Assembly (NCBI RefSeq): GCF_056746865.1 | Contig: NZ_CM163382.1 | Reading direction: 5' to 3' (one strand) | DNA length: 64,000 bases | Notes under the pieces: model-generated | The model's database searches: none | What the model was told of the DNA's origin: nothing | Seen by the model: only the letters and a program-made list of their open reading frames with translations | Part shown: piece by piece, positions 19,111-38,804 of the stretch | How positions within the stretch are numbered: position 1 is the stretch's first letter | How the letters are laid out: each line of letters opens with the position of its first letter | Program-made: the position numbers and the translations under genes

Positions 19111-19126
19111 CGCACCATACCGCATA

Positions 19127-19535: not shown

Positions 19536-19610
19536 TTAAATAGCTACGGGTTATTGCCCAAGCTATCCACTAGCAAATAAAAAGTAACTTAATTCGATAG
19601 CGGAGTTTTT

Positions 19611-21351: not shown

Positions 21352-21408
21352 CGTAGATACCTGTAACCCTGTGCGCCACAGTTCACCGCACCACGGCGCT
21401 GGTGATGG

Positions 21409-21606: not shown

Positions 21607-21810
21607 TGGTACACCTCACTTAAATGGATTTGATGGGCGCACACAATACAGCAAAAAAAGTGAGAAGTTAAGTATTGACATGTGCGCACACATGATTTTA
21701 ATCTGTGCGCAAGTTTGGGTTGCATTGCTCAAATTAAGCAACGCCCCGCAGTGCTCGCAACACATGCAGGGCGTCTAACCACCAACGATAGAAAGCGTAT
21801 CGAGGTAGCT

Positions 21811-22014
21811 ATGTTAAATCATACCACACACCCGCAAGGGCGGGACTCGCACAACCTGAATAAATACATCTGGCGTTTTATCGCCCTGAGCACCGCACAA
21901 CCACGCGTAATACACATCGAGGCCGCCAGCGAACAGGAAGCCCGTCAGCAATCCCCGGCTGGCTGCGTGATGGTATTTACTGCCCGCATCCGTCAGGGGG
22001 AATACTATGCGTGA
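21811..22014 (+). CDS. Small hypothetical island protein (67 aa)
   Basis: ATG 21811 after GAGG; MLNHTTHPQGRDSHNLNKYIWRFIALSTAQ... Confidence 0.4.
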   Translation: MLNHTTHPQGRDSHNLNKYIWRFIALSTAQPRVIHIEAASEQEARQQSPAGCVMVFTARIRQGEYYA

Positions 22015-22264
22015 TGAACGATTTATTCTTCTGGAGCAAAAATTCAGTGAAGCGCCAAAAAATGAAATTGATGCTCTTTTGCATATCGCGAATATGCTAA
22101 AAGTAGCAACGTTCCTTATAGTTTCGAATCTGGAGCATGAAACGGCGTTAGATATACTGAACAGTGCTGTCGATTATTCTGAATATATTGCCGAGGATAA
22201 ATACAGGCAATTACCAGATTTGTTAGCCCATAAATATAAAGAAGAACCTCACACCGGGAAATAA
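22007..22264 (+). CDS. Hypothetical protein (85 aa)
   Basis: ORF in operon-like series upstream of primase gene. Confidence 0.45.
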   Translation: MRDERFILLEQKFSEAPKNEIDALLHIANMLKVATFLIVSNLEHETALDILNSAVDYSEYIAEDKYRQLPDLLAHKYKEEPHTGK

Positions 22265-22266
22265 AC

Positions 22267-22569
22267 ATGAAGAAGATTAAATTTACTGGCTTAAATGCCA
22301 GCGGACAGACTCACCCGAAAATCAGGATCGGGGATATTTTCCGGGATAAATATGGTGACAGCGTGGTTATTAATTCCGTGTATGAACGGCACATTACATA
22401 CCGCCGCGCAGGGTACGACTATGACTGTGTGATGCCCGTTCATCAGTTCCGGCGTGATTTTTCACTGGTATGTGCAGCACCACGCAGTAAGCCCACCAGT
22501 AAAGAGAAAGCACGGGCAAATATTCAGGTAATAAAGAACATGATTAACGCATTCAGGGGCAAGAAATGA
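22267..22569 (+). CDS. Hypothetical protein (100 aa)
   Basis: ORF overlapping primase start; tight spacing with neighbours. Confidence 0.45.
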   Translation: MKKIKFTGLNASGQTHPKIRIGDIFRDKYGDSVVINSVYERHITYRRAGYDYDCVMPVHQFRRDFSLVCAAPRSKPTSKEKARANIQVIKNMINAFRGKK

Positions 22570-24692
22570 AACGCGCACCGAATTTAAAGCACCAGCCGAA
22601 AGACAAAATGACGGAGGTGATTATCTTTGCGGGTAGTGATGCCTGGGCACATGCGAAAGAGTGGAGCGAATGGGCCGGAAAGCATATTGCGGCAGATGAT
22701 ACACATCCAGTTATTCTTGGACCGGAACAACTGGCGAGTCTGGCAGACACGCAAATCATCGACAAAGGGCGCTATTACGTGCGCGTTTATCGTGCTGGTG
22801 AAATATCAGAGCAGCACCTTACACAGATAGCGACACTGCTTGCAGTGGCGGGTGTGAAGGAGGCGCGTTGCTACCGCAGCTTTGTTGATCAGCAGCCGGA
22901 GGACTGGACACCGCGCATGGCTGGACTGAAGGATGATGCGGAACGCGGTAACAGTCTGGTGATCAACCTTCCGGCGAAGACAAATTTCACCGGAAATTAT
23001 GATGACGAATTAAAGCCTCGTGTTGAAAGTCGCGTCGATGGTGTTTTCTGGGTAACGCCCAAAGTGGACAAGCAGTCAGGCGAAATTATCCGGCCTGAGA
23101 CGTGGTTATGTTCTCCGCTTGAACTACTGGGAACAGGAACAATCGGCAAAGAGCATTACCGCGTGATGCGCTGGAAAAAACCAGCAAACCATGAGGTCAT
23201 TACAATGGCGGTCCCGTGCGGAGGCATTGGTGACCGTGACGGCTGGCGGTTGCTGAAAGACCACGGCCTTAACGTGACGACCAACGGCAAATACAGGGCT
23301 ATCTTGGCTGACTGGATGCAGTTAAGCGGAAACCATGAGGAATGGCAGTTAAGCACAACAACGGGGTGGCATTTTGGTGCGTACATCATGCCGGATGGTT
23401 CGATCATCGGTGAATCAGAGAAACCCATCCTGTTTACCGGAAAAACTGCCGCTGTTAATGGCTATTCCGTGGCGGGAACAGCGGAGGGCTGGCGCGATAC
23501 CGTGGCACGGCTGGCTGGTGGTAATCCGTCCATGATGCTGGGTGTGGCGGTATCGCTATCTGCACCATTAATCGGGCTGGTGGGTGCTGACGGCTTCGGG
23601 GTTCATCTTTTTGAGCAATCATCAGCAGGTAAAACCACCACACAGAACATTGCATCAAGTTTATGGGGAGAGCCGGACGCGCAACGGCTGACCTGGTACG
23701 GAACGGCGTTAGGTATCGCCAACGAGGCCGAAGCACATAATGACGGGCTGTTACCCCTGGATGAAATAGGCCAGGCCGGAAACGCACGGGAGGTGTCCAC
23801 GTCAGCCTATACGCTGTTTAACGGTTCCGGGAAATTACAGGGGGCGAAGGACGGCGGCAACAGGGAGATAAAACACTGGCGTACGGTGGCAATCAGCACC
23901 GGAGAAATGGACGTTGAAACATTCCTCAAAACGGAAGGGATAAAAATTAAAGCGGGACAGCTTGTCCGTCTGCTTAACGTACCGATGGAAAAGGCCTCGC
24001 AGTTTCACGAATACAGCACCGGAAAGGCGCACGCAGACGCGTTAAAAGATGCCTGGACAGAAAATCACGGGGCGGCAGGTCGTGAGTGGGTTAAATGGCT
24101 GGCAGGCCACCAGCAGGAGGCAAAGGACGCGGTAAGGGCATGTCGCGAGCGGTGGCGCAACCTGATACCGGAGAGCTACGGCGAGCAGGTTCACCGTGTG
24201 GGGGAAAGATTCGCCGTACTGGAGGCCGCGCTTGTGCTTTCCGGTCATGTTACAGGCTGGGATGTTCAGGCGTGCCGTGATGCAGTTCAGCATAACTTTA
24301 ATGCCTGGGTGAAGGAATTCGGCACGGGCAACAGGGAATTTAAACAGATGGTTGAACAGGCTGAGGCGTTTTTGTCGTCGTTCGGGTTCAGTCGATACCT
24401 TCCCTATCCAAACAGCGACGAGCGTGATTTACCGATTAAAGACCTTGCCGGATACAGAAAGGGGAGTATCAGAAACGAAGATGACGAGTTCCGTTTTTAC
24501 ACGTTCCCGCATGTGTTTGAGGGTGAGATAGCACAGGGATTTAATCCGTCTCACTTTGCCCGCGCGTTGAGTGCAGCCGGAATGCTGGAAGCGGGAGGCG
24601 ACCGCCGTTACAAGAAAAAGGCGCTCGGCAGGATTGGCGGGAAGCAACATATTTTTTACGTGCTGATGTTCCAGCCTGAAGCAGAAGATTAA
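22566..24692 (+). CDS. Satellite/prophage replication protein, DUF927-type primase-helicase-like, Walker A present
   Basis: 708 aa; Walker A-like FEQSSAGKTT; immediately followed by iterons. Confidence 0.75.
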   Translation: MKRAPNLKHQPKDKMTEVIIFAGSDAWAHAKEWSEWAGKHIAADDTHPVILGPEQLASLADTQIIDKGRYYVRVYRAGEISEQHLTQIATLLAVAGVKEARCYRSFVDQQPEDWTPRMAGLKDDAERGNSLVINLPAKTNFTGNYDDELKPRVESRVDGVFWVTPKVDKQSGEIIRPETWLCSPLELLGTGTIGKEHYRVMRWKKPANHEVITMAVPCGGIGDRDGWRLLKDHGLNVTTNGKYRAILADWMQLSGNHEEWQLSTTTGWHFGAYIMPDGSIIGESEKPILFTGKTAAVNGYSVAGTAEGWRDTVARLAGGNPSMMLGVAVSLSAPLIGLVGADGFGVHLFEQSSAGKTTTQNIASSLWGEPDAQRLTWYGTALGIANEAEAHNDGLLPLDEIGQAGNAREVSTSAYTLFNGSGKLQGAKDGGNREIKHWRTVAISTGEMDVETFLKTEGIKIKAGQLVRLLNVPMEKASQFHEYSTGKAHADALKDAWTENHGAAGREWVKWLAGHQQEAKDAVRACRERWRNLIPESYGEQVHRVGERFAVLEAALVLSGHVTGWDVQACRDAVQHNFNAWVKEFGTGNREFKQMVEQAEAFLSSFGFSRYLPYPNSDERDLPIKDLAGYRKGSIRNEDDEFRFYTFPHVFEGEIAQGFNPSHFARALSAAGMLEAGGDRRYKKKALGRIGGKQHIFYVLMFQPEAED

Positions 24693-24715
24693 CTTCCCTG
24701 TGTGAGGTAAAAAGT

Positions 24716-24845
24716 TGCGGGTTATGCGGGTTATCCTGTGCATAAGTTAATTAACTGAATGATTAAAAAGGAAATTAATAACCCGCACGTAACCCGCAAA
24801 ACGGCAGTTATAACCCGCAAATGTGCGATTGTAACCCGCAAAATT
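24716..24845. repeat. Iteron cluster 1 (putative replication origin): convergent copies of TTGCGGGTTAT / ATAACCCGCAA
   Basis: gttgcgggttatgcgggttat then aataacccgcacgtaacccgcaaaacggcagttataacccgcaaatgtgcgattgtaacccgcaaa. Confidence 0.7.
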
Positions 24846-24902
24846 TCACTGTAAGAGTGTAAACAAGCGTAACTATCACGTTAAAACCGGAGAACAAACA
24901 GC

Positions 24903-25328
24903 ATGACGGCGCAAATATCAGCTTACGGGCGGCTGGTGGCTGACCCGCAGTTAAAGACCACCAGCAAGGGCACACAAATGGCGATGGCGAGTATGGCGGT
25001 CCCCCTTCCATGCAATCAGACAGATGACGGAACGGCGACGATGTGGTTATCCGTCCTGGCGTTTGGCAGACAGGCTGACGCACTGGCAAAACACCACAAA
25101 GGCGAACTGGTGAGCGTGGCCGGTAACATGCAGGTGAGCTGGTGGACGGGCCAGAACGGCGAAACGAGGCAGGGATGGCAGGTTATCGCAGACAGCGTAA
25201 TCAGTGCGCGAACGGCGCGACCGGGCGGCAAAAAAGGCCAGCAGGGGCAGGCTACTGATGCACTGAACAGGGCAAAGCAACAGACAGGCCAGCACGATGA
25301 TCCGTACGGGGACGGGATACCGTTTTAA
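24903..25328 (+). CDS. Single-stranded DNA-binding protein-like (OB-fold)
   Basis: 141 aa; pattern GRLVADPQLKTT...WLSVLAFGRQADALAKHHKGELVSVAGNMQVSWW...GETRQGWQV resembles SSB OB-fold core; Gly/Gln-rich tail ending DDPYGDGIPF like the SSB acidic tip. Confidence 0.55.
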   Translation: MTAQISAYGRLVADPQLKTTSKGTQMAMASMAVPLPCNQTDDGTATMWLSVLAFGRQADALAKHHKGELVSVAGNMQVSWWTGQNGETRQGWQVIADSVISARTARPGGKKGQQGQATDALNRAKQQTGQHDDPYGDGIPF

Positions 25329-25411
25329 TTCACAACAGCGAACAGAGTAATTACCCAGTGCGCCGTAAAGCCCCGTCCTTCAGGTCGGGGATATAAGGCG
25401 CGGTTTTCCAC

Positions 25412-25828
25412 CTAACTAGGTGTTTGCTGTTGTTCAATGTATTGGCGGATGATGGATATTGGCGCACCTCCGCAGCTACTGGCAAAATAGCTGGGACTCC
25501 ATAAAACGCCTTTGTAGTAATACCTGACTGCAATATCTGGTCGATCTCGTCGCAATAATCTACTCGATACGCCCTTGAGACTGTTCACCAGGGTGGATAT
25601 CGCCAATTTGGGAGGATAGTTAATTAGCAGGTGAACGTGATCTCGTTCTCCATCCATTTCAACCAGTTCAGCTTCAAAATCAGCACATACACTTGAAAAG
25701 TAAGTGCGTAGTTTTTCTATTGCGTCATGGTCAAAAATCTGGCGTCGGTACTTGGTAACAAAGACCAGGTGAACGTGCATCAGGAAGACACAGTGCCTTC
25801 CACGTCGGATATCGGTTTCTTTTTTCAT
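25412..25828 (-). CDS. tnpA: IS200/IS605 Y1 transposase TnpA
   Basis: Start at MKKETDIRRGRHCVFLMHVHLVFVTKYRR; HuH motifs HVHLV and DHVHLL; ends ...GGAPISIIRQYIEQQ. Confidence 0.88.
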   Translation of the reverse strand: MKKETDIRRGRHCVFLMHVHLVFVTKYRRQIFDHDAIEKLRTYFSSVCADFEAELVEMDGERDHVHLLINYPPKLAISTLVNSLKGVSSRLLRRDRPDIAVRYYYKGVLWSPSYFASSCGGAPISIIRQYIEQQQTPS

Positions 25829-25850
25829 AGGCCAAAGTATAATTTGGCAT

Positions 25851-27059
25851 ATGAAACGACTACAAGCTTTCAAATTCCAGTTAAGACCAAATGGAAAACA
25901 GGAGCGTGAAATGAGGCGCTTCGCGGGCGCATGTCGTTTCGTTTTCAATCGTGCTCTGGCGCTTCAGAATGAGAATCATGAGGCCGGGAACAAATATATT
26001 TCTTATGCAAAGATGACTTCCTGGCTGGTTGAATGGAAAAATGCTACTGAAACGCAATGGCTTAAAGATTCTCCCTCACAGCCATTGCAGCAGTCACTGA
26101 AAGACCTTGAGCGAGCCTACAAAAATTTCTTTCAGAAGCGTGCCGCTTTTCCCCGATTCAAAAAGCGGGGACAGCATGATGCATTCCGCTATCCGCAGGG
26201 TGTTAAGCTCGATCAGGAAAACAGCCGTATTTTTCTGCCGAAACTGGGCTGGATGCGCTACCGGAACAGCCGTCAGGTCACGGGTGTTGTGAAAAATGTC
26301 ACTGTCAGCCAGTCCTGCGGTAAGTGGTACATCAGTATTCAGACAGAAAGTGAAGTATCAACTCCGGTTCACCCTTCAGCATTAATGGTCGGGCTGGATG
26401 CTGGCGTGGCTAAACTCGCCACGCTGTCAGATGGCACGGTCTTTGAGCCTGTAAACAGTTTTCATAAAAACCAGAAGAAGCTGGCGAGACTTCAGCGCCA
26501 GTTAAGCCGCAAGGTTAAATTCAGCAACAACTGGCAGAAGCAGAAACGCAAAATACAGCGACTGCATTCCCGTATCGCAAATATCCGCAGGGACTACCTT
26601 CACAAAGTCACAACGACCATCAGCAAAAACCACGCAATGATAGTCATTGAGGATTTGAAGGTCAGCAACATGTCAAAGTCAGCCTCGGGTACGGTCAGCC
26701 AGCCGGGGCGCAATGTCCGGGCAAAATCAGGTTTAAACCGTTCGATACTGGATCAGGGCTGGTATGAAATGCGCCGTCAGCTTGAGTACAAGCAGCTCTG
26801 GTGTGGCGGTCAGGTGCTTGCTGTTCCGCCAGCGTACACAAGCCAGCGTTGCGCGTGCTGTGGTCATACAGCGAAAGAAAATCGCCTGTCACAAAGTCAA
26901 TTCAGATGCCAGGTATGTGGATATACAGCGAACGCCGATGTAAACGGCGCTCGTAACATTTTAGCGGCGGGGCACGCCGTTCTTGCCTGTGGAGGGATGG
27001 TGCAGTCAGGCCGCCCGTTGAAGCAGGAACCCACCGAAATGATTCAGGCGACAGCCTGA
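25851..27059 (+). CDS. tnpB: TnpB (OrfB) RNA-guided nuclease-like protein
   Basis: 402 aa; [17 protein letters not shown]...; C-terminal CxxC...CxxC zinc finger ([37 protein letters not shown]). Confidence 0.9.
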
Positions 27060-27265
27060 ACGTAGCAGGAATCCACGTCCTTCAGGGCGTGGAGGATGTC
27101 AAATATCAATGCGACGACTGGAATGTTCCAGGAAGGCACAGAGGCCACCGAAGCAACCGGATAATTTAGAAGACCTGAAACGGTCGCTTAAACGCACTGA
27201 AAAAGAAATGGGGATAGATGGGATCGGGAAATCAGTATGGCGTAACTACCAGAAGTAAGCACAGA
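27060..27265 (+). ncRNA. Putative omegaRNA (reRNA) scaffold at tnpB 3' end / IS right end
   Basis: By analogy with IS200/IS605 TnpB systems; structured region ending in hairpin GCCGGAGCAATCCGGC plus T-run. Boundaries not determined. Confidence 0.35.
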
Positions 27266-27289
27266 GCCGGAGCAATCCGGCTTTTTTTT
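27266..27289 (+). terminator. Hairpin plus T8 tract at IS right end
   Basis: gccggagcaatccggc followed by tttttttt. Confidence 0.5.
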
Positions 27290-27389
27290 GGCTGAAATCA
27301 ATCAATCTGTTTTTGTGATAGAAATATATTTATCTACCACTTTTTTCGATCAATAATGTGCATAATTTAGTCATTAAGAGGAAATTGCT

Positions 27390-27596
27390 GTGAATTGTAT
27401 TAACGACCTGAACACAGGCGATGTCAGAGGTGGTTCCGTTCATCTGGATGCACAGACCGTGATGCGCCTTAAGCAGTACAGAATCGACCATGTGAACAAT
27501 CACCCTGATCAGCCATTACCAGGCGTGGCGCAGATTGTCAGACATGCCGTAAACGCCTGGCTTAATCAGAATGGTTTTGCATCGGGGGGTGAGTAA
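27390..27596 (+). CDS. Small protein (68 aa), first gene of the novel operon; possible regulator
   Basis: GTG start 27390 preceded by AAGAGG; no recognisable family. Confidence 0.45.
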   Translation: MNCINDLNTGDVRGGSVHLDAQTVMRLKQYRIDHVNNHPDQPLPGVAQIVRHAVNAWLNQNGFASGGE

Positions 27597-27692
27597 TGAA
27601 TCGCTGGTACAGCATCAAAGCAGAGGGACGCCAATGTTATCTAACTCAGGTTTTATGAATTCTGACTCCCGATTCAAAATAGGAGGTTACTA

Positions 27693-30224
27693 ATGCCAGT
27701 CGTACCAACAGTATCCGGACGTCAGGTTGAGAGCCGTGGAGTTCAGTCAGCAGGCTTGCAGACGTTTTCTCAGCCAGGTATTGGTGATGCTTTTGTTCGG
27801 GCAGGGGCAGAGGCAATTGATGTTTTTGGTCAGGCAAAACAGCGTGCCAATATTGCCTTGATTCAGGAGGCATCCCTTAAACTCAGTCAGATAGGCAGTG
27901 ATCTGCTGAATAATCCTGAAACAGGATTGCTTAACCTGAAAGGGAAAAATGCTATTGGAAAAGGCCATGAGTATACACAGCAGTTTGATGCTCAGATCGA
28001 ACAACTGGCTATGTCGCTGCCGGATGAACAGGCTCGTAATGCTTTCATGCAGCAGGCGCAGCAGCAGCGTATTCAGTTCGCTACGCAGGCCGGGAGGTAC
28101 GAGATAGGGCAAATAAATGCCTACGAAGAAGGCCAGTTTCAGGCGACACTGCTGAATAATGGTAAAAATGCCTCAGCATTATATGGCGACAACGCAGCAT
28201 ACATATTGGCTAATACGCAAACTTTCCAGCAAATTGAGGATTACGGTATTGCGCATGGCTGGAGCGACGAGCAAATCCAGGCCAAGAAAATCGAGTTTAA
28301 AGAAGCAACAGCAAAAGCAACTGCTCAAAATGCTATTGGAGCAAACTATCTTCAGGTAAGACAGCAAAATGGCGAGTTAAGCGATACTGCTGCTGGATCT
28401 CGCCGTGCTGTAGCAGATAGTGGCTCTTCCGATCGTACCCGCGGTATACGCAACAATAACCCCGGCAATCTTGAATACAGCAAAACTAATCCGTGGATTG
28501 GGCAGACTGGTGATGATGGTCGCTTTGCCAAATTCGAAACCCCTGAACACGGTATTCGCGCGCTTGGTCGCAATTTGCTGTCGTATCAGCGTCAGGGTTA
28601 TGACACCATCAGCGAAATAATTAATCGCTGGGCACCGGCCAGTGATGATAATAAAACTGATGCTTATATACGGGCAGTATGTGCTCAGCTCGGTGTAACT
28701 CCTGACCAGCCGCTTGACGCATCAAATCCTGACACACTGAAATCTCTGTGCAAAGCAATTATTCATCATGAGCAAGGCAGTCAGCCGTACAGTGATCAGC
28801 AATTGGCCGCTGGCGTTAGTGCCGCACTGGGGCTTTCTCAGCTACCGACAAAAAATAAACGTTATACCGGTGTAGCCTGGTTCGATGCTTTAAGTGAATC
28901 AGATCAGGCCAGCGTGTTGCGACAGACGGATGCATTAGCCAGACAGCAGCAGGCTGAATATAGAACGATGCTCGAAAGCCGGGTTCGCGATGCAACGGCT
29001 GCGTATATGCGTGGCGTTGAATTTCCTAACCCGCCTGGTGAGGGTGAGTTCATTGCTGCTTATGGTGTCAGAGAAGGAAACCTGCGATATACCGAGTTCA
29101 GAAATTTGCAGATCGCCGGACAGTATATAGGCTCTTTCCGCAACATGCCGACAAGCAGCATTACCGCATATGTTGAGCAATTACGCCCGGATACTGGTGA
29201 GACAGGGGAGGGGTATGCGTCTCGTGCGGAGTTATTCGACCGGGTATCGGCGGCAGCCACGAAGGTAATAACCCAGAGGCAGAATAATCCGTTTAGTGCA
29301 GCGGTGGAAATCGGAGCCTATAAGCCGATCACCAGCAACAACCCTGACGACATCACTGCCGAGGTGGCTAACCGTTTCTCGTCGCAGGAAAGCTTACGCG
29401 CGTTGGGAATTAATGCCCCACTCCTCAACAGTGAAGAGGCGGCTGCGCTGGCACAGCAGGTGCGCGGCACTCAGAACGTTGACCAGACAATTAAACTGTT
29501 GCAGAGCATGGGGGAGAAGCTGCCTGCGCCAGCAATACGGCAGGTGGCATCTGTAATTGCTCCGAACAGTGCGGCAACAGCCTATTCTGCGCTGCTGCTG
29601 GGCACGCCGGATAACCAGTACGACAACACCAGGCCGACGATCCCATATAGTCAGTTCATCGGGTATAAGCCGACGATGAACAAGTACGACGTTGCAAAGG
29701 TTATTCTTTCCGGCGACCAACTACTGAATCCGACGAAGGCCATGAAGAATGCGGGCATAACTCCGGTACAGTTGCCGAGCGAAGATAAGATGAAAGACGC
29801 TTTCGACGAACAGGTAGGTAATGCATTTGCCCGTAACCCGCAGTTACGCCAGATCAGTTATAGCCTTTTCAAAGCCGCTTACGCAGGAATAGCTTATCAA
29901 TCTGGTGATGCCTCTACGGTAAGAACCAGTATGCCTGATACAGACATTGTAGCTGATGCCGTGAAGTATGCTACTGGCGGTATATACAATGGTTTTAATG
30001 GCGGCGACGTTGTAATGCCTTTTGGCATGGATAAATCTACTTTCAAAGATCGCTATACCACATCTGCGAAACAAGCACTGAAAGATGCCGGACTTAACGT
30101 AAATGCAGTGTCAAATTTCACGCCAGTTAATATCGGCAATAACCGGTATCGGCTTGTAAATGGTAGCGGACGCTGGGCAACAGATCCCAGAACCAATAAA
30201 GCTATTGTCGTGAGGGTTGAATAA
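27693..30224 (+). CDS. Large hypothetical protein P1 (843 aa), Q/A-rich, conserved-looking block RNNNPGNLEY...
   Basis: Strong RBS AGGAGG before ATG 27693; stop overlaps next start (TAATG). Confidence 0.8.
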   Translation: MPVVPTVSGRQVESRGVQSAGLQTFSQPGIGDAFVRAGAEAIDVFGQAKQRANIALIQEASLKLSQIGSDLLNNPETGLLNLKGKNAIGKGHEYTQQFDAQIEQLAMSLPDEQARNAFMQQAQQQRIQFATQAGRYEIGQINAYEEGQFQATLLNNGKNASALYGDNAAYILANTQTFQQIEDYGIAHGWSDEQIQAKKIEFKEATAKATAQNAIGANYLQVRQQNGELSDTAAGSRRAVADSGSSDRTRGIRNNNPGNLEYSKTNPWIGQTGDDGRFAKFETPEHGIRALGRNLLSYQRQGYDTISEIINRWAPASDDNKTDAYIRAVCAQLGVTPDQPLDASNPDTLKSLCKAIIHHEQGSQPYSDQQLAAGVSAALGLSQLPTKNKRYTGVAWFDALSESDQASVLRQTDALARQQQAEYRTMLESRVRDATAAYMRGVEFPNPPGEGEFIAAYGVREGNLRYTEFRNLQIAGQYIGSFRNMPTSSITAYVEQLRPDTGETGEGYASRAELFDRVSAAATKVITQRQNNPFSAAVEIGAYKPITSNNPDDITAEVANRFSSQESLRALGINAPLLNSEEAAALAQQVRGTQNVDQTIKLLQSMGEKLPAPAIRQVASVIAPNSAATAYSALLLGTPDNQYDNTRPTIPYSQFIGYKPTMNKYDVAKVILSGDQLLNPTKAMKNAGITPVQLPSEDKMKDAFDEQVGNAFARNPQLRQISYSLFKAAYAGIAYQSGDASTVRTSMPDTDIVADAVKYATGGIYNGFNGGDVVMPFGMDKSTFKDRYTTSAKQALKDAGLNVNAVSNFTPVNIGNNRYRLVNGSGRWATDPRTNKAIVVRVE

Positions 30225-32284
30225 TGTCTGATGTTTTTTCTTTGGCTCCAGAAGGTCAGGCATGGATTGACGACAAAACAGTTGCCAACCCAGCAAGGCC
30301 AGAAGACTACGATCCGACTCCCTTCCAGGGTTCAGGTACTGCACTTTTGAGCGGCGTGGCGGAGGGGGCTCTCGGTCTCGCGCAGTCTGCCGTCGGATTC
30401 AGCAAGCGTCTGATTAGCGATCCGGCATTTACCGCAGACGTGGCACCGACAGTTAATATTTTTCGGGAGATGTTCCCTGATGCTGACAAAACACTGAATG
30501 ATACATACGACACGATCGGAAAACAGTTACAGGATGCCCGCAGCTATGTGAAGCCTGATGCAGGCAGCCAGGGAATGGCGGCTGAGGTATTAAATGAGCT
30601 TGGTAAATTTGTTCCTGCAATCGGAACAACTATGTTTGGTGGTCCGCTCATCGGCGCTGCTACAGCCTTCAGTTCTACGTATGAGCAGTCCTATCAGGAT
30701 TTTAAAGGGAAGGGAGTAGACGAGGCTACAGCGCGTAACCTGGCAACGCAGCAGAGCCTTTTCAATGCTGTGGGTATGGCCTTACCCGCTGCCGTCGGCA
30801 CCACACTGGCAACGCGCATTGCCTCAGGTGTGGCAATCAACACCGGATTCGGTGGACTGAACCGTTACTCAGTAGGCGCAACACTGGAGGAAAAAGGCTA
30901 CACGGAGATGGCAAAACAGTATCGGGTATTTGACGGTCAGGCGATGTTAGTCGATGCCGTTTTAGGCGGGGTCTTTGGTGGCGTTCATCACCTGACTACC
31001 CATAATAACCATGATGGTACAGAGTCGAACATTTCTGCAGAAGAAATAAAATCAACTTTTGGTGAACATTATCAGCAATCTCCTGATGGTAACATTGAGT
31101 CAATGGTTCGTGATTTATCTGATTCAGGAGTAATAGAACTTATTAATGAACCAGCAATAAAAAATAGTGATGGAGAAATACTTCTGAATAAAGGTCATGT
31201 GACAGTAGCTTCCGGAAAAGAACCAATAATAAGAATAAATATTAATGGATTAAAAGACCATGAAGAACTGTTAGAAACCCTTCATCACGAGGCGCTTCAT
31301 CTTGAGCAGCGCCATTACCCTGACTGGAAGGCCAGAAAGCTAGCTAATGCTGTACTTAAATCTGCAAACAAGCATTCTGACTATCCTGAATTTGCATATG
31401 GGATGTCACAATATTATGAATATAAGAAAAGGGGTGAGTACCCTGAAACATATCCTGAGTGGTTGTACGCTGAAGAAGTTGCCGCACATGCAGTAAATCC
31501 ATCTCTAAAGACAAGCGTTTCATCATGGGAAAAAATTATTTCAGGTTTTAAAGCCTATATATTCAGATACAGTGGTATTCAGGTTGGAACCGTTACACCT
31601 GAGCAGTTACGGTTACTCGTAAGTATGCGTCTTCGCAATATGAAACTGGAAGCCGCAGTAGAAAAAGTTTTTGGTATCCGGGCGAGGGAAAGAATAAAAC
31701 CAAGCGATATTGATGCAGCCCACATTTTGAATGAGGGGCTTCATTACGATATTGAATCGTCACCAGTGCTTCATACCAGCAATGAGAGCATCAACAGCCA
31801 TGTTGACGCCATGGATGAAGCATACAGGCAACTTAATGATGGTCAGCCTGTAAATGTTGGGGGGATGGCGCGAGGGCTTGATGGTCCATTGCGATCAGAT
31901 ATATCTGATACTTACCAAGAGCAATACCATGAAATACAAAAGGTTTTTGAAGAAAATGGTGTCAGATACGAAACATCATCAGAGCCAATTAGTGAATCGC
32001 CTGTCCCTCGTGCTGAAAGTGCTTTCTCATCGGCTGGTGAACACAGAGGGGACATCAGCGTTGATCCAGATACAGGGCAGGTTCTCTCATCCAACAGCTA
32101 TGACCTTATGGCTGCCAGGGACATGGCTGTTGCCAATCCTGAGCTGACTATAGCTCACCCGGAAACCGGAAACCCGACAAAACTTTCTGATCTCCTGGCT
32201 GAGTTGGATGAACAGATTAAGACAGTCCAGAACGAATCGAAGGTTTATTCTGTAGCAGCAGCGTGCTTCTTGAGGAACCCATAA
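30224..32284 (+). CDS. Large hypothetical protein P2 (686 aa) with glycine-rich hydrophobic segments and an HExxH motif
   Basis: HEALH at nt 31286-31300; N-terminal third has repeated Gly/Ala-rich hydrophobic stretches; TAATG coupling at both ends. Confidence 0.8.
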   Translation: MSDVFSLAPEGQAWIDDKTVANPARPEDYDPTPFQGSGTALLSGVAEGALGLAQSAVGFSKRLISDPAFTADVAPTVNIFREMFPDADKTLNDTYDTIGKQLQDARSYVKPDAGSQGMAAEVLNELGKFVPAIGTTMFGGPLIGAATAFSSTYEQSYQDFKGKGVDEATARNLATQQSLFNAVGMALPAAVGTTLATRIASGVAINTGFGGLNRYSVGATLEEKGYTEMAKQYRVFDGQAMLVDAVLGGVFGGVHHLTTHNNHDGTESNISAEEIKSTFGEHYQQSPDGNIESMVRDLSDSGVIELINEPAIKNSDGEILLNKGHVTVASGKEPIIRININGLKDHEELLETLHHEALHLEQRHYPDWKARKLANAVLKSANKHSDYPEFAYGMSQYYEYKKRGEYPETYPEWLYAEEVAAHAVNPSLKTSVSSWEKIISGFKAYIFRYSGIQVGTVTPEQLRLLVSMRLRNMKLEAAVEKVFGIRARERIKPSDIDAAHILNEGLHYDIESSPVLHTSNESINSHVDAMDEAYRQLNDGQPVNVGGMARGLDGPLRSDISDTYQEQYHEIQKVFEENGVRYETSSEPISESPVPRAESAFSSAGEHRGDISVDPDTGQVLSSNSYDLMAARDMAVANPELTIAHPETGNPTKLSDLLAELDEQIKTVQNESKVYSVAAACFLRNP

Positions 32285-35040
32285 TGAAACAGGCATGTGT
32301 GGAAGCTATTGCGCAGACACTTGGTCGCCAGCCAAAGGCTGATGAGCTGAAAAATATTGAAGATCGTATCAAAGAAGCTGTGCAGCATGTGCACAGAAAG
32401 AATGCCAAAGAAGGCAAAAGTGGTATTCCTGATGCTCAAACATACATGGATGCAGCAGAACTGGTACGCCAGCGTGTGGTTCATGATGTGTACAAGAAAA
32501 GACAGCGTGTTGCCCAGAATGCGATCGCCATCAGTAAAATTACTGACACTCTCGATGCTAACATCCCGCCTGATCAGCAGACACCTGTTAATTTGCAGCA
32601 GTTTATTTTTGCTGGCCGACGATCGAGAGACAAAGCTGATATCTCCGTTACTTCTGCTGAAGAACTTGCAATTGGGGCATATCAGGACTGGTCCCGTCAG
32701 CTCAGTGCTGAACTTCTAAAAGCAGGTGATGACGTCCGCAAATTCTTCGAGCAGAGCAGGGCGCTTGGAGAGCAGCGGTTTCGGAGTGTATTCGACAGGC
32801 AGGCGGCAAAGTCTGCACAACTCCAGATCCTGAAAGAAATATATGGCGAAGATACCGGGAATCCCCTGGCGAAGAAAATTGCACAGATTTGGAAGGATGT
32901 AACAGGCCGTGTTCGTCATGAGATGAACGACAATGGCTTTGACATAGGCCTGCGAGAAGACTGGCATACGCCATATGTGGATGATGCTGACCTTATTCGC
33001 AATGCCGGGCGCGAAGAATGGCTGGCATCGTTACCAGTGGCAGAGCAAGCTACAGCACGTCTTTCAGGTCGCCAGCCACCGATTGAGTTTGCCCGCCAGA
33101 AATGGGTTGATGACGCTTACAACACGCAGGATCGCAGCAATTACGTTAATCCTGACGGCAGCATTATGAATGACGTCGAGTACCGTCAGGCACTGGAAGC
33201 GATCTTTGAAACGAAGGCCACTGATGGGGCAAACAAAATTGAGCCTGGTACATTTATGGGAGCCGGAGGAATAAAGAGCCGTGGTTCTCAGCACAGGGTG
33301 ATGGCGTTCAAGGATGCGCAGTCACACTTCGCCTATATGGAACGATACACTCAGCAGCCGCTGGTGGGGGTGATGATGTCGCACCTGCAATCATCATCCA
33401 GGGATTTGGGCGTCGTTAAAGCCTTTGGTCCGGACGCCGAAAGAAACTTTTCCCTGGTACTGGATCGCATCTATAAGCGCGCAGTAACAGGCGGGAAACG
33501 CAAAAAAGAAATGGAGGATGAGGCCAAATTAGTTGCCCGTATGTTCAACTCAATGGCTGGCCTAAATGGTGTCGCTTCATCGAGTGTGTTCTCTTCAGCA
33601 GTTGGTGGTCTGCGTAACCTGATGACCAGCGCCATGCTTGGCACCAGCGTACTGACAGCAACCAGCGACCAGGCAATTATGCGGGCAAATGCGCAGGCGC
33701 TGGGCTTTACCCGTGGTGGAATGCGGCTTTCCGTTAACACTATCAAAAACCTGTTTAGTGGAGATGCCAAAAAGGCGAATGCTGAACTCGGTCTGCTGGT
33801 GGATTCACATGCTGCTGTGGTTTCGAAAATGGGCGGGTTTGACTTGTCTCGCGGCATAACTGGCTGGTTCGCAGAGAAGACACTGAAGTGGTCCGGGCTG
33901 ATCGCTATGGACCGCGCAAACAAAGCGTCGTTTGGTCTCCTGATGTACAAAAACATTGGCGAGCTGACCAGAAAATTTAAGACGCTGGACGATATGAAAG
34001 GAACCGATAAAACCATTCTGGCTAACAAGGGATGGAGCAATGAGGACTGGGCCATCATGGCAGCGGCAGAACTCAGGCCGATGACTACTGCCGGGCATAT
34101 GGGGATGACGCCAGACGCGATTTACGCTGTGCCCGATAACGTAATAGCCGACATTATGGCAGACCGTATTACCCGGATTCGTGCCGGGAGTGAAAAGGCA
34201 CTGGCAGCCCTTGGAGATCTCCCTCCAGAACGCCTGAAACGGATGAAAGAAGCATTCGACGCTGAGGCTGAGCAGACCATCACGCGCATGATTCGTAATG
34301 CACGCGCTGAAGCAGCCCAGAAATTGCTGGGAATTACGCACGGTGAGATGACCAATGCTGTGACCACCGCTACGGGTATTGATACATATGCCCGTGATGA
34401 TGCTGGCGAGTTAATGAAGAGCTTCATGCTCTTCAAAACAACCCCATTTGCTGGATTTCGGCAACTTGTTAACAGAACACGGGATTTGGACACCGTTCCG
34501 GCCATTAAATTTCTGGCCTCATATATCGGGGGAACAACTCTTGCTGGTATGTTTGCGATCCAGATGAACAGTTTGTTAAATGGTAATGATCCGCTGGATA
34601 TGACAAAACCAACCACATGGGTTCAGGCTTTACTGAAAGGTGGTTCGTTCGGTATCTACGGTGATTTTATTTTCCAGGACCATACGCAATATGGCTCCAG
34701 CATCGGTGCCACTATGGGTGGCCCTGTGTTGAGCTTTGCAGAGCAGTTAACAAAATTACTGATTACTAACCCACAGAAGGCTCTACAGGGTGAAGAAACA
34801 TCATTCGGTGCCGATGCACTGAAAACAGCCCGCATGATCACCCCATTCGCAAACCTGTGGTATGCGAAAGCGATAACCAATCACCTGATATTGCAACAAC
34901 TTCAGGAGATGGCAAACCCTGGTTACAATGATCGAGTAAGGGACCGCGCGCAACGGGAGTTCGACATAACGAGTTGGTGGGAACCGGGTGCTATTGCGCC
35001 ACGTAGAGCACCGGATTTTGGAAAGGCGGTGGGGAACTGA
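32284..35040 (+). CDS. Large hypothetical protein P3 (918 aa)
   Basis: ORF 32263..35040; start taken at MKQACVEAIAQ (ATG 32284 overlapping P2 stop); Gly-rich hydrophobic segments toward C-terminus. Confidence 0.8.
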   Translation: MKQACVEAIAQTLGRQPKADELKNIEDRIKEAVQHVHRKNAKEGKSGIPDAQTYMDAAELVRQRVVHDVYKKRQRVAQNAIAISKITDTLDANIPPDQQTPVNLQQFIFAGRRSRDKADISVTSAEELAIGAYQDWSRQLSAELLKAGDDVRKFFEQSRALGEQRFRSVFDRQAAKSAQLQILKEIYGEDTGNPLAKKIAQIWKDVTGRVRHEMNDNGFDIGLREDWHTPYVDDADLIRNAGREEWLASLPVAEQATARLSGRQPPIEFARQKWVDDAYNTQDRSNYVNPDGSIMNDVEYRQALEAIFETKATDGANKIEPGTFMGAGGIKSRGSQHRVMAFKDAQSHFAYMERYTQQPLVGVMMSHLQSSSRDLGVVKAFGPDAERNFSLVLDRIYKRAVTGGKRKKEMEDEAKLVARMFNSMAGLNGVASSSVFSSAVGGLRNLMTSAMLGTSVLTATSDQAIMRANAQALGFTRGGMRLSVNTIKNLFSGDAKKANAELGLLVDSHAAVVSKMGGFDLSRGITGWFAEKTLKWSGLIAMDRANKASFGLLMYKNIGELTRKFKTLDDMKGTDKTILANKGWSNEDWAIMAAAELRPMTTAGHMGMTPDAIYAVPDNVIADIMADRITRIRAGSEKALAALGDLPPERLKRMKEAFDAEAEQTITRMIRNARAEAAQKLLGITHGEMTNAVTTATGIDTYARDDAGELMKSFMLFKTTPFAGFRQLVNRTRDLDTVPAIKFLASYIGGTTLAGMFAIQMNSLLNGNDPLDMTKPTTWVQALLKGGSFGIYGDFIFQDHTQYGSSIGATMGGPVLSFAEQLTKLLITNPQKALQGEETSFGADALKTARMITPFANLWYAKAITNHLILQQLQEMANPGYNDRVRDRAQREFDITSWWEPGAIAPRRAPDFGKAVGN

Positions 35041-35354
35041 TGACGAGAGATAAAATTGAATATATTGCTTCTCTTAAATATGAAGCTGAGAAATGGAGAA
35101 GGATTGGCGGGTGGGGAACATTAATATCACTCTCTGCTTTACTTATAGACTCCTGGTTCAGACATATTGATGCAGCATCATTACTTTTTGAATCAGCAGT
35201 ACTTGGTGGATTCATTTGCTGTTGGGGTGGTAATTATGATCGGGCGTCCAAACATAAGAGAGAACTTGACGCGATATGTTTTGCTTTATTCGGTAAGGAT
35301 TACGAAAGTTCTGACCTTGATATAATTGAATTCAACAAAACGGAACTATCGTGA
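35040..35354 (+). CDS. Small predicted membrane protein P4 (104 aa)
   Basis: ATGA overlap with P3 stop; two hydrophobic segments (GTLISLSALLIDSWF, AVLGGFICCWGG). Confidence 0.6.
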   Translation: MTRDKIEYIASLKYEAEKWRRIGGWGTLISLSALLIDSWFRHIDAASLLFESAVLGGFICCWGGNYDRASKHKRELDAICFALFGKDYESSDLDIIEFNKTELS

Positions 35355-35362
35355 CATGTCAC

Positions 35363-35388
35363 AGGCCGCTTTCGCGGCCTTGTTTTTA
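35363..35388 (+). terminator. Rho-independent terminator closing the P1-P4 operon
   Basis: aggccgctttcgcggcct followed by tgttttt, 9 bp after the P4 stop. Confidence 0.6.
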
Positions 35389-36054
35389 ACGAATGCCACC
35401 GCCGCCCGGGCGGGAATTCGCAGATAAAAAAGCACGCTGCACGGTTTTATTAATACTTATACCATTAGGATTGATCCTTCAATGGACAATCCTTCCATCG
35501 TGTGGCCAGCCATTCATATTCTTTGTCTTTTCTTCAGTATCGGCTTTGCATCTTCTACACCCTGAAAGATGTCGTTTTATGGTGTATCTGATGATTTATT
35601 CCCTAACAATAGATATTCGAAAAATTAATCAGTTAAAACAATTATTTGGATAATTTCAGGTAAAACTATCTTAATCTTCTGGTGGATCTCAATGCGTAGT
35701 GACGGTATCGGGATTAAGGGCGTGGATATTCGCGATATATGCCGCTACACCCCTCAACAGTAATAGATATGAGCTTTTCACGCTCTCCTTTCACTGCTGA
35801 GAACGGCAACAACGTGCCACAGGAACGCGCTGTAATCGATTCTGACGCACTTAATTGCGTTGGGTAATGGTTTTTGCCAGCCTGTGGGGGTAACTCTGTT
35901 TTATGAGGCTTTGGCTATAGTGCAAAAATACACTTTGTCTTGCCTCTCAATTTGATGAGACTGGAACGACAACAGGACAGACCACCAGCAACAGTTACCG
36001 TATTCAGCCGTTCTGTGGCACCAGTGGAACTATCAACCCCTGCTTTCAGCAATG

Positions 36055-36212
36055 TGTTTGCGGGTTATTTTGGGGCGTTTGCGGGTTATTTGGGATGTTT
36101 TGCGGGTTATGTGATGCTTGAATAATGAACAGTGTATTTTGCAACATATTGATACTAAAGAACAAAAAATAGTTAGCATACTAAGATAACCCGGTAACCC
36201 GCATAACCCGCA
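36055..36212. repeat. Iteron cluster 2: three direct TTGCGGGTTAT copies then three inverted ATAACCCGC copies
   Basis: Same 11-mer family as cluster 1 at 24716-24845, about 11.3 kb away. Confidence 0.65.
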
Positions 36213-36699
36213 CTGTTTTGTATATATATACGAAAAATTGCATTCAGGAGGGGGGGAGCGAAATCCCTACAATCCATTGCTTATGGGACCGCCCGCCTCG
36301 TCAAATTTTTACACCCGCGAAATAAAAAAATACTTCACGCTGGTGGGCATGATGCTGATATGGGAGGCTTCCATAACGCCACCATTCGGAACTATGCAAA
36401 TCTGCATAGAAAAGGGGATGCCTGATACAATACCCTCGCCCGATAAAATCACACCGATAAACTCATCTGCCACGAGTAGAAAGAGCGAACGAACCCGATA
36501 CGCAGTAATGCTTGTCGGGTACAGCTTTTTAAGGCGGCTGTAGATATCAGGCCATCCGTGATCATCCACCAGCGAGATAGCCGATAACGATGACGCATAA
36601 CCCTCAAGCGAGGGATAAATGTGTATAGAAATGTGTATAGAATTGATTTTAGAACTCGCAGGATTCGCGCTATTACTGGCCTTGTGTGATGTTGTATTG

Positions 36700-36717
36700 T
36701 TCCCTTCGCCCGCTCCA
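36700..36717. repeat. tRNA 3'-end remnant / right att repeat (TTCCCTTCGCCCGCTCCA)
   Basis: 18 nt consistent with T-arm/acceptor stem/CCA of tRNA-Gly (glyU-like) as I recall it; contains the 15-bp repeat shared with 16792-16806. No complete tRNA in the window. Confidence 0.55.
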
Positions 36718-36949
36718 ATTTATCTTCACCTCATCAACCTGCCATTTTTGTTGTATCTGATTTTCTATATTATCTTAATTCAATCGCTTCAGACTTTTCG
36801 CAATCGCCGTAATACTTCCCCATTTTTTTGTAAATAAAAGCGTTTACGCAATGCAATCCATTTGTAACAACCCAGGTAAAATACCTTATTTTCAAGTTGT
36901 TAAATAAGTGGTTATCTACGCTTTTAACAAACGATTGATGGAATCTTTT

Positions 36950-38221
36950 ATGAAAGGGAAATCTACATTAACTCTTCTGCTCGCTGGTATATTTTCATGC
37001 TGCACATGCCAGGCGACAGGGGCAGAAGTGACGAGTGAATCTGTATTTAACATTCTTAATTCCACGGGGGCAGCAACTGATAAAAGTTATTTATCGTTAA
37101 ATCCAGATAAGTATCCTAATTATCGTCTTCTGATTCACTCAGCCAAATTAAAAAATGAAATAAAGAGCCACTATACCAAAGACGAAATTCAAGGATTGTT
37201 AACATTAACAGAAAATACACGAAAGTTAACGTTGACGGAGAAACCATGGGGAACATTTATTCTTGCTTCTACTTTCGAAGATGACAAAACAGCGGCAGAA
37301 ACCCACTATGATGCTGTCTGGCTGAGGGATAGTTTATGGGGCTATATGGCATTAGTATCAGATCAGGAAAATAGTGTAGCCGCAAAAAAGGTTCTGCTCA
37401 CTCTGTGGGATTATATGTCTACGCCAGACCAGATTAAACGGATGCAGGACGTCATTAGCAACCCAAAACGACTGGATGGTATTCCTGGGCAAATGAATGC
37501 TGTGCATATCCGATTTGACAGCAACTCCCCCGTGATGGCAGATGTGCAGGAAGAAGGCAAGCCGCAGCTGTGGAACCATAAACAAAATGATGCGTTAGGT
37601 CTTTATCTTGATCTCCTTATACAAGCAATCGACACTGGTACTATTAACGCTGAAGATTGGCAAAAAGGTGACCGATTAAAATCGGTTGCGCTGCTGATTG
37701 CTTATCTGGATAAAGCCAATTTCTATGTTATGGAAGATTCCGGAGCGTGGGAAGAAGATGCCAGATTAAACACATCTTCCGTTGCACTGGTGACCTCTGG
37801 ACTGGAACGTTTGTCGAACTTACTCTCGAAGAAAGACTCTGTTTTTGTCTCTGATTTACTACGCGAAGCTAAAGCTAATGAACTGGATGAACCACTTTCA
37901 ACAACGAGGTTGAACCACCTCATAGATAAAGGTTATGAAAGAATAACGTTACAGCTTGATTTAGGGGGAGAATCCCCAGGTTATCTGGAAAAAGATAAAC
38001 ATTACAGAGAAGCCGATGCGGCTTTACTTAATGTTATTTATCCTGCAAATCTTTCAAAGATAAATACCAGAAGAAAAGAGCAAGTTCTAAAAATAGTTAA
38101 AAAACTAGCAGGTCCGTATGGTATAAAAAGATACGAGAAGGATAATTATCAGTCGGCAAATTTTGGTTCAATGATATTAAAACCGATACCGATCAAAATT
38201 CACATGCAAAAAGAGAAATGA
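36950..38221 (+). CDS. Putative secreted protein/lipoprotein (423 aa) at the ETT2 island edge
   Basis: ORF 36908..38221; start taken at MKGKSTLTLLLAGIFSCCTCQA (signal peptide, possible lipobox). Confidence 0.55.
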   Translation: MKGKSTLTLLLAGIFSCCTCQATGAEVTSESVFNILNSTGAATDKSYLSLNPDKYPNYRLLIHSAKLKNEIKSHYTKDEIQGLLTLTENTRKLTLTEKPWGTFILASTFEDDKTAAETHYDAVWLRDSLWGYMALVSDQENSVAAKKVLLTLWDYMSTPDQIKRMQDVISNPKRLDGIPGQMNAVHIRFDSNSPVMADVQEEGKPQLWNHKQNDALGLYLDLLIQAIDTGTINAEDWQKGDRLKSVALLIAYLDKANFYVMEDSGAWEEDARLNTSSVALVTSGLERLSNLLSKKDSVFVSDLLREAKANELDEPLSTTRLNHLIDKGYERITLQLDLGGESPGYLEKDKHYREADAALLNVIYPANLSKINTRRKEQVLKIVKKLAGPYGIKRYEKDNYQSANFGSMILKPIPIKIHMQKEK

Positions 38222-38559
38222 GCTTCATTCCATCAACAGAAGCAGAATGGTTTTTTGACTCATGGTATGCAAAATCAGCAGCAATTGTTTATAAAGAATC
38301 AAGAAAAGAAGAGTATTTGAATGACTCAGTGCAATTTATGAATAGATCATTGGCCCAAATAACAGGCGAGAATATGATTGGTGCAAATGGCAGGAGCGTA
38401 CCTGAAATGGCACTTCCCGAAAGCTATAACTATATCCACAAGTCAGGAACTTTGCATGAAGCGCCAAGCCCTATCATTCCGCTAAACTGGTCGAAAGCCT
38501 CAATGACTCTTATGTTGAAAGAAATGTCCAATCTTATCAATGATGAGGGAATTAAATAG
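38218..38559 (+). CDS. Hypothetical protein (113 aa); could be a frameshifted continuation of the upstream gene
   Basis: ATG overlaps upstream stop at an A-rich tract. Confidence 0.35.
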   Translation: MSFIPSTEAEWFFDSWYAKSAAIVYKESRKEEYLNDSVQFMNRSLAQITGENMIGANGRSVPEMALPESYNYIHKSGTLHEAPSPIIPLNWSKASMTLMLKEMSNLINDEGIK

Positions 38560-38567
38560 TTTTCATA

Positions 38568-38804
38568 ATGAAGCGGTCCTGGATTAAAAGGACCGCTCAA
38601 AGAGAAATCGTAAGGGAGGTAAAAGTGATCAATAAATTACTGTTAGCTTACCTGATAGGTCTGGTTGTGACATCGACCTTAATATTTATCTTCTCGGAAG
38701 AAAAAGTAACATATCGGTTGTTTGCTGCAGTAATTACAGGGTTGACATGGCCGCTTAGCCTCATTCCATCCATCATAAGTCTCATGATTCGTAAATCCGA
38801 CTAA
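38568..38804 (+). CDS. Small membrane protein (78 aa)
   Basis: Two hydrophobic helices. Confidence 0.35.
   Translation: MKRSWIKRTAQREIVREVKVINKLLLAYLIGLVVTSTLIFIFSEEKVTYRLFAAVITGLTWPLSLIPSIISLMIRKSD

Follow-up and report, generated by a model that had tools for sequence, protein, structure and literature searches.

What occupies the DNA between the last operon of a phage-related island and the first gene of the Escherichia coli type III secretion system 2 (ETT2) locus? The question is raised by positions 35389-36949 of a 64,000-nucleotide stretch of contig NZ_CM163382.1 (assembly GCF_056746865.1), which is referred to here as the window and whose numbering is used throughout. The initial annotation, made from the letters alone, described this segment as an AT-rich, non-coding interval at the island/ETT2 border and guessed that it may hold a satellite packaging site or origin elements. 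The comparisons reported below indicate that the right arm of the island (35355-36717) probably carries a second replicase-binding origin unit, analogous to crr of satellite P4, and a helper-type cohesive-end (cos) site. Both belong to a 19.9-kb satellite of the phage-inducible chromosomal island (PICI) type, located at the tRNA-Gly gene glyU. What had been an unannotated gap at the well-studied glyU/ETT2 locus is thus converted into a set of mapped cis elements, and the true border of the island is fixed at its right attachment core, attR.

The island spans 16807-36717 (19,911 bp). Megablast searches of 5,426 complete E. coli genomes gave the locus order xdhA, actS, glyU, island, a glycoside hydrolase family 15 gene (ygeQ), and ETT2. 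The island genes are, in order, int (start at about 16970), the int-alpA RNA (Rfam, 18229-18296) with alpA, antirepressors, an Icd-like gene, DUF4222, a DUF927 primase-replicase, ssb, ProQ/FinO, PerC, three large open reading frames (ORFs), and a 104-aa ORF. The annotation of an identical island (L001; comparison loci are cited by L and H numbers) contains alpA and the rightward, one-directional order int-alpA-pri/rep, which is the gene order of Gram-negative PICIs (PMC6092414). The direct repeats that accompany a PICI integrase are present as an attR core of 18 nt and an attL core shortened to 14 nt. The island is devoid of capsid, tail, terminase, and lysis genes, yet two of its three large ORFs are homologous to internal virion proteins of the phiV10 type. 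Judged by gene content and order, the island is a PICI-type phage satellite.

The origin of a PICI consists of two iteron sets around an AT-rich region directly after the primase-replicase (Pri-Rep) gene, and the replication gene of EcCICFT073 with its adjacent origin was shown to work as a replicon (PMC6092414). The same arrangement is found in the window, where the DUF927 gene (22566-24692; DUF927 was its only Pfam match) is followed at 24717-24839 by iteron cluster 1, designated unit 1. Iteron cluster 2 of the initial annotation was recovered in the arm as six repeats and is designated unit 2. On the plus strand, GCGGGTTAT is found at 36060, 36081, and 36102, and the minus strand carries CCGGGTTAT at 36186, GCGGGTTAC at 36194, and GCGGGTTAT at 36203. 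The iteron consensus, GCGGGTTAY, occurs 12 times in the two clusters, whereas chance alone would give about 0.5 exact copies of a 9-mer in the whole window. Units 1 and 2 are separated by 11.2 kb and share both the 9-mer and the layout, in which two iteron sets flank an AT-rich spacer. The earlier guess at origin elements is upheld by this likeness to the replicase-adjacent origin; the predicted origin elements of the arm are supported by homology.

The short (TA)n tract reported previously is (TA)5 at 36220-36229 and belongs to the TA box listed in Table 1. Apart from the number of TA repeats (5 to 7 copies), none of the 29 TA-box columns varies across six islands. In the six aligned cassettes, 2 of 53 iteron columns are variable, or 2 of 82 when the TA box is included, compared with 40 of 99 spacer columns. 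A 27-mer of the TA box is also found after the replicase-proximal origin in L015 and L021, 20-35 nt ahead of the first downstream gene. A sigma-70 scan returned fewer promoter-like sites than shuffled controls (3 vs 6.2), and the TA box was not flagged.

The relation of unit 2 to the replicase was assessed from the positions of the two units in other islands. In a capsid-forming PICI (cf-PICI) of the EcCIEDL933 type (L006), both units are in tandem right after the DUF927 gene. Four independent islands of this replicase and iteron type (the family of the window island, L005, L022, and L023) have unit 1 next to the replicase gene, and their unit 2 is confined to the right end, adjacent to cos. 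In L015, whose DUF927 replicase is associated with TGGGACRAC iterons, the right-end unit contains the corresponding TGGGACAAG repeats. As read from these sequences, the distribution of the units is complementary, with one case of covariation (L015).

The packaging site was identified by comparison with an annotated cos region. The segment 36247-36329 is 84.5% identical over 83 nt (E 5e-13) to the cos region of the Stx2e phage phiP27, which is located between HNH and terS, so that the cos comparison proposed in the initial annotation came out in favor of its guess at a packaging site. The 10-nt cos annotated in phiP27, CGCCCGCCCC, corresponds to CGCCCGCCTC in the window with 9 of 10 positions matched, and CGCCCGCCTC conforms, at the conserved position, to the expected cohesive-end pattern NGCCCGCCCC. 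The cohesive end measured for phage SfI is the 10-mer TGCCCGCCCC (PMC3636060). An identical CGCCCGCCTC is present in the phiP27-like prophages L033, L035, L038, and L042. The G7 homopolymer reported at 36248-36254 is real and lies two bases to the right, at 36250-36256. The island has neither HNH nor terS, as expected for a satellite that borrows the terminase of its helper. The cos and origin assignments are supported by homology, and cleavage at this site is predicted only.

A scan with the 24-mer GTCAAATTTTTACACCCGCGAAAT returned 23 viral contigs together with genomes of Halomonas, Rheinheimera, Modicisalibacter, and Caballeronia. The E. coli phiP27-like copies contain the G-box, GGGACCGCCCGCCYC, the 24-mer, and then a start codon about 20 nt farther on, at the position of phiP27 terS. 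In the four distant genera the G-box and the 24-mer are kept, and a different sequence stands at the position of the 10-mer. The exact conservation of GTCAAATTTTTACACCCGCGAAAT in these genera (L048-L051) is unusually deep for non-coding phage DNA. Two other cos types were examined. The lambda cosN pattern GGGCGGCGACCT does not match the arm even with 2 mismatches allowed, and the HK97 left end has no useful similarity to the arm.

The same cos block is found at the right end of other PICIs, one of which is a circular 10.8-kb episome. This element, L011 (NZ_CP148328.1, a 10,790-bp "plasmid"), is a complete circular PICI with int, alpA, primase, a protease/capsid fusion, and DUF1441. Its cos block is located just before the att/int junction, and the supposed plasmid is probably a satellite assembled in its excised form. 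The sequence to the right of cos in the PICIs (36330-36377) has no counterpart in the phages, where terS begins at that point, and is a candidate for a satellite-specific cosB-like element. The palindromic flank is split in the window by a 176-bp insert, in which a hairpin (36493-36520; DNA fold z-score of -3.0) is followed by a T-run at 36526-36530 in the manner of a terminator. Within the insert, 71 nt (36461-36531) are 84.5% identical to the pmgF/rlfB intergenic DNA of phage P1 and of many P1-like plasmids, and this block may represent either a terminator common to them or a small mobile element. Its interpretation as a remnant of the rlfB gene was rejected, since the match lies in intergenic DNA downstream of rlfB. 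No significant match to RlfB, PmgF, phiP27 HNH, or TerS was obtained when the arm was searched with tblastn.

Table 1. Coordinates of the features of the island arm and of the related elements elsewhere in the window
Feature	Position	Strand	Remark
Truncated attL core CTTCGCCCGCTCCA, joined to the cas5e/casD gene, no intact glyU	16793-16806	+	
Predicted origin unit 1 (iteron cluster 1): 2 direct and 4 inverted GCGGGTTAY around an AT-rich spacer	24717-24839	.	just after the DUF927 gene
Rho-independent terminator (stem 35363-35380, T-run to ~35387) and tail, closing the operon of three large proteins	35355-35437	+	
Island-family-specific spacer, probably decayed DNA (~0.55 kb)	35438-35980	.	no phage or plasmid matches
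Left flank of the iteron-TA-cos cassette	35981-36059	.	~82% identity to STEC313 island L005 and L016; boundary differs in L017, L018
Predicted second PICI-type origin unit: 3 direct GCGGGTTAT (21-bp spacing), 75-nt AT-rich spacer, 3 inverted repeats (8-9 bp spacing)	36060-36211	.	
Invariant TA box CACTGTTTTG(TA)5CGAAAAATTG, always adjoining the last iteron	36212-36240	+	
Predicted phiP27/SfV-type cos site: G-box 36247-36258 (holds G7), cohesive-end equivalent CGCCCGCCTC 36290-36299, 24-mer GTCAAATTTTTACACCCGCGAAAT 36300-36323	36241-36329	+	
PICI-specific right flank of cos (CACGCTGGTGGGCATGATGCYGATATGG...)	36330-36377	.	kept in L005, L011, L012, L013, L015; not in phiP27
Indel-variable insert (176 bp) splitting the palindromic cos flank	36378-36553	+	missing from L012, L013; partly from L015
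End of the arm common to all island copies whatever the integration site	36554-36574	.	homology to L003 (near dinD) stops at 36574
Integrase-specific P' arm with two direct TGTGTATAG repeats (36620-36628, 36632-36640)	36575-36699	+	segment differs between L003 and the window
attR core, 18-nt copy of the glyU tRNA-Gly 3' end; true right island border	36700-36717	+	H21 and H22 homology stops exactly there
Native AT-rich glyU-ygeQ intergenic DNA (GC 0.318), upstream of the ETT2-edge glycoside hydrolase family 15 gene	36718-36950	+	

The position of unit 2 allows a different function to be considered, in which the GCGGGTTAY repeats beside cos are packaging elements, namely cosB-like sites for the terminase small subunit or for a redirecting protein, with bending by IHF as in lambda cosB. 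The repeats are found 79 bp from the cleavage-site equivalent in 159 genomes, an IHF-consensus match is present on the minus strand at 36142-36154 in the AT-rich spacer between the two repeat sets, and the repeats are kept in islands with different replicase iterons. Against this, the iterons that immediately follow the DUF927 gene in the window, L005, L022, L023, and L006 consist of the identical 9-mer, and in EcCIEDL933 the unit is located by the origin, about 6 kb from the HNH-terS cos. The cos sites of phiP27-type phages and of the PICIs L011-L013 are without these repeats, and in the phages terS is on the opposite side of the cleavage site. A packaging role for the repeats is considered very unlikely.

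With unit 2 read as an origin unit, the following sequence of events is proposed for the island. Transcription of the last operon would stop at a terminator that, like the operon itself, came from a phiV10-like podophage. Once the island had excised at its att cores, the DUF927 primase-replicase would bind the GCGGGTTAY iterons at two origin units, one beside its own gene and the other next to cos, whose AT-rich spacers could be melted. Replication would yield concatemers, and the cos site would be recognized by the terminase of a helper with a phiP27/SfV-type HNH endonuclease, a P27-family TerS, and TerL. The DNA would be cut at or near CGCCCGCCTC and packaged, with a 39.8-kb dimer filling a head of helper size. 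The genomes of phiP27 (42.6 kb) and SfI (38.4 kb) are close to this length, which would fit cos-to-cos packaging of a multimer. The last 143 bp would serve as the integrase-specific arm and core for re-integration. The cos sequence makes a phage with an HNH, TerS, and TerL module of the phiP27/SfV type the likely helper, and a helper type is thus predicted for a satellite that carries homologues of podophage ejection proteins.

Several observations weigh against this assignment. A GCGGGTTAY unit is found beside cos in at least four islands whose replicase-proximal iterons are unrelated, namely L016 (CTGTCTACC), L017 (AGTGGGGA), L018 (CTGTTCACC), and L021 (TGGGACRAC). In L016, L017, and L018, the non-cognate iterons and TA box vary in 0 of 82 columns and the spacers in 20 of 99 (Fisher p = 3e-6), and the unit therefore has no simple link to the replicase of its own island. 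Right-end iterons that covary strictly with that replicase had been expected; this held in L015 and in the cognate islands and failed in L016, L017, L018, and L021, and the claim was lowered accordingly. In addition, attL in the window is truncated and fused to casD, the conserved cos flank is split by the 176-bp insert, the first inverted iteron of cluster 2 has one mismatch, and the helper phage is absent from the window. The truncated attL, the split flank, and the iteron mismatch mean that this copy may be immobile.

The fused attL and the insertion in the cos flank could also be explained if the arm were mostly inert debris, with the origin unit and cos as relics carried along by recombination in a fixed, immobile copy. 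The putative gene remnant at 35692-35742 and the 1-nt deletions found in relatives, in cosN (L003) or in the att core (H1), point in the same direction. Decay of this kind is difficult to reconcile with iterons and a TA box that are invariant next to variable spacers, and with a cos 10-mer that is identical to that of live phiP27-like variants. The arm is also identical over 1.7 kb between strains, whereas the flanking ygeQ is about 2% divergent (36 differences over 37001-38700, relative to fS10a), which implies a recent transfer. The debris explanation is regarded as quite unlikely.

On the evidence of the aligned islands, unit 2 is either constrained or exchanged too fast to decay, and it travels with cos as a cassette. 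The iteron-TA-cos cassette (286 nt) is present over at least 80% of its length in 159 of the 5,426 complete E. coli genomes (~3%), and only 1 of 30 sampled matches overlapped an annotated feature, a hypothetical protein. The iteron/TA junction had 0 matches in species-representative genomes, that of E. coli included. In view of the islands with non-cognate replicases, the block of about 290 bp could be a portable replication and packaging cassette that recombines among E. coli satellites independently of their replicases. Beside a non-cognate replicase, selection would keep it for replication in trans by a co-resident DUF927/GCGGGTTAY satellite (e.g., of the EcCIEDL933 type) or for a link between the firing of the origin and the recognition of cos. 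This proposal is tentative and, on balance, unlikely. If true, the portable cassette would represent a layer of satellite-on-satellite exploitation, and a cassette that works in trans would bear on competition or cooperation between satellites. The survey itself flags a conserved and almost never annotated cassette in about 3% of complete E. coli genomes.

Three further observations were made on the islands that carry the cassette. In L018 (8900-9420) it has on either side roughly 80 bp of a hairpin-rich sequence, the one found ahead of cos in L011 and L012, an arrangement that suggests either tandem cos regions or a recombinational insertion of the cassette. L017 and L023 are two capsid-forming PICIs with the same cassette inside the terminase large-subunit gene of a prophage, and a helper-embedded configuration of this kind is known (PMC10111431). 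The CTGTTCACC iterons of L018, at 140-440, contain the octamer TGTTCACC.

The border of the island was determined from the att core and from base composition. The reported att remnant was confirmed as TTCCCTTCGCCCGCTCCA at 36700-36717, the sole match in the window, which agrees exactly with the 3' end of glyU in relatives. With attR as its end, the island includes 35355-36717, and the native glyU-ygeQ spacer occupies 36718-36950; this spacer sequence also adjoins a different glyU island in L013. When 35300-37000 was compared with the complete E. coli genomes, 5,279 matched a part of it and only 22 matched at least 80%, from which it is inferred that most match the chromosomal end only. The border had been placed at 35.4 kb, which is instead the end of the phage-derived operon within the island. 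The composition shift reported there is far beyond chance, and it is stepwise and not a single sharp step. GC is 0.485 in the island, 0.443 in the arm to 36717, 0.318 in 36718-36950, and 0.358 on the ETT2 side, with a return to 0.46-0.50 at 35.7-36.1 kb. A single change-point is best placed at 35050, the start of the last small gene, in a local frame and at 36615, about 100 bp from attR, in a large frame. The drop in composition therefore occurs in two steps, at about 35.05 kb and at 36.6-36.7 kb, which reflect a mosaic of phage-derived operon, satellite arm, and AT-rich native and ETT2 DNA. The segment is non-coding as described but is not uniform, since it is made of at least eight modules of differing evolutionary history, the last 233 bp of which are native chromosome.

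The operon terminator of the initial annotation was confirmed by a terminator scan as a Rho-independent structure. The block 35355-35437 is 94-98% identical to DNA at the same position, after the internal-virion-protein operon, in phiV10-like podophages and prophages, and a terminator is annotated in phiV10 at the equivalent position. Two of the three large ORFs were compared with internal virion proteins of the phiV10 type and gave identities of 64% (843 aa) and 27% (925 aa). From the identity of the terminator block and the homology of the ORFs, the composition step at 35.05-35.4 kb marks the end of an imported phage module. The homologues of phiV10/epsilon15-type podophage ejection proteins (27693-35354), imported with a phage terminator, are unusual cargo for a PICI. 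This cargo is mismatched with the phiP27-type cos, because the terminase of phiV10 is different. The G+C-rich sequence at 35394-35412 appears cos-like by eye and was rejected as a cos candidate, as it is part of the phiV10-type terminator block.

The spacer that follows gave zero matches in phages or plasmids, and the full arm is present in only 44 E. coli genomes. Within the spacer, 35692-35742 weakly resembles the conserved 93-aa last gene of other PICIs (16 aa, E 2e-4 in a tiny database; blastn and tblastn), and a 59-nt block at 35815-35873, with a terminator-like hairpin at 35841-35864 in the terminator scan, is common to L015. The absence of convincing ORFs was confirmed. None of the arm ORFs had a Pfam match, and no credible Rfam match to the arm was obtained at the gathering score or at E <= 1.

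The Prokaryotic Genome Annotation Pipeline (PGAP) calls a minus-strand "hypothetical protein" at 36309-36728 in L001, L002, and L004. An uninterrupted frame of at least 135 codons is present, and a real small protein at this position was considered. The start of the frame is outside the island, and the context beyond attR sets its length at 86, 139, or 151 aa. In H1, the long form exists only through a 1-nt deletion in the att core, and the 139-aa call in L001 (fS10a)/H1 results from this deletion, at the equivalent of 36709; this call is an annotation artefact across the island border. The frame is antisense across cos and att, and in L015 it is missing 145 nt, a length not divisible by three. 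Among 5.8 billion proteins searched, 7 clusters matched, 6 of them at 91% identity or more and 1 weakly (E 3e-4, with 60% identity across 35% of the query), and all clusters with a named source are from E. coli. Conserved coding sequence in related elements, which would have contradicted the initial annotation, was thus not found, as the frame is restricted to near-identical E. coli proteins. The call in the relatives is probably spurious, and a genuine protein here is extremely improbable.

The last 143 bp of the island are specific to the integration module, because the homology with the copy near dinD (L003) stops at 36574. The 36575-36699 segment is conserved in another glyU island, L013. 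The TGTGTATAG 9-mer family is also found twice just upstream of int, at 16932 and 16962, and repeats at both ends, judged by sequence, are typical of arm-type integrase sites. Apart from its copy near dinD, the same island is found at glyU with ETT2 deleted (L004).

The left end of the island differs from this pattern. A tRNA scan of the window found zero tRNAs, and attL is accordingly without a neighboring intact glyU. To the left of the island (11992-16806) are iap, a type I-E CRISPR array (repeats from about 13068 to 13900), and cas genes up to cas5e/casD, which is joined at 16790-16793 to the last 14 nt of the tRNA and the island int. The cas5e/casD-int junction is found in only one other complete genome (ETEC1747), and glyU is intact in GF43 and fS10a. 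The odd junction suggests an inversion or deletion of roughly 100 kb, perhaps via a secondary att site. On the right side, ygeQ (36938-38559) is split into ORFs of 437 and 113 aa by a 1-nt deletion near 38160 relative to fS10a and is likely a pseudogene here.

The arm was compared with four known systems. Satellite P4 has separated ori and crr iteron clusters for one primase-helicase initiator and is a small satellite that carries the cos of its helper. The window island is similar in having two separated clusters of the same iteron on one replicon. It differs in that the initiator is of the DUF927 and not the P4 alpha type, the iteron is GCGGGTTAY and not TGTTCACC, which we take to be the P4 type I iteron, and the cis role of the second cluster is putative. 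The complementary distribution and the covariation in L015 speak indirectly for such a role, and the non-cognate combinations speak against a strict need for it. The origin of Gram-negative PICIs of the EcCICFT073 type (Fillol-Salom et al. 2018, PMC6092414) is similar in its two sets of short iterons, its AT-rich spacer, and the position of unit 1 directly 3' of the replicase gene. The iterons of PICIs are specific to the Pri-Rep of the island (PMC6092414). Here, in contrast, a second complete unit is located 11.2 kb away beside cos, and the same unit is found in islands with unrelated replicases.

The cos sites of phiP27, SfV, and SfI, which are used by HNH-dependent terminases with a P27-family TerS, share with the window the G-box, the position of the 10-nt NGCCCGCCYC, and the exact 24-mer on the terS side. 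They differ in that HNH, terS, and terL are not adjacent in the window, where the terS side is replaced by the PICI flank. Helper-type cos sites on satellites are also found in EcCICFT073 (cos1/cos2 with Rpp, PMC6739421) and in the cf-PICI EcCIEDL933 (bioRxiv 10.1101/2022.09.08.507074), the latter of which has the replicase type and iterons of the window island. The cos of EcCICFT073 is described as lambda/phi80-like (PMC6739421), whereas that of the window is phiP27-like, and the window island is without DUF1441/Rpp-like, capsid, or terminase genes. In a limited check of the literature, no description was found of a second origin unit beside cos, of a cos of the phiP27 instead of the lambda type in a PICI that makes no capsid of its own, or of the cassette with unrelated replicases, and newness is not claimed for them. 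The arm described here is an unannotated example of established element types, namely PICI origins, PICI cos sites, and phiP27-type cos sites.

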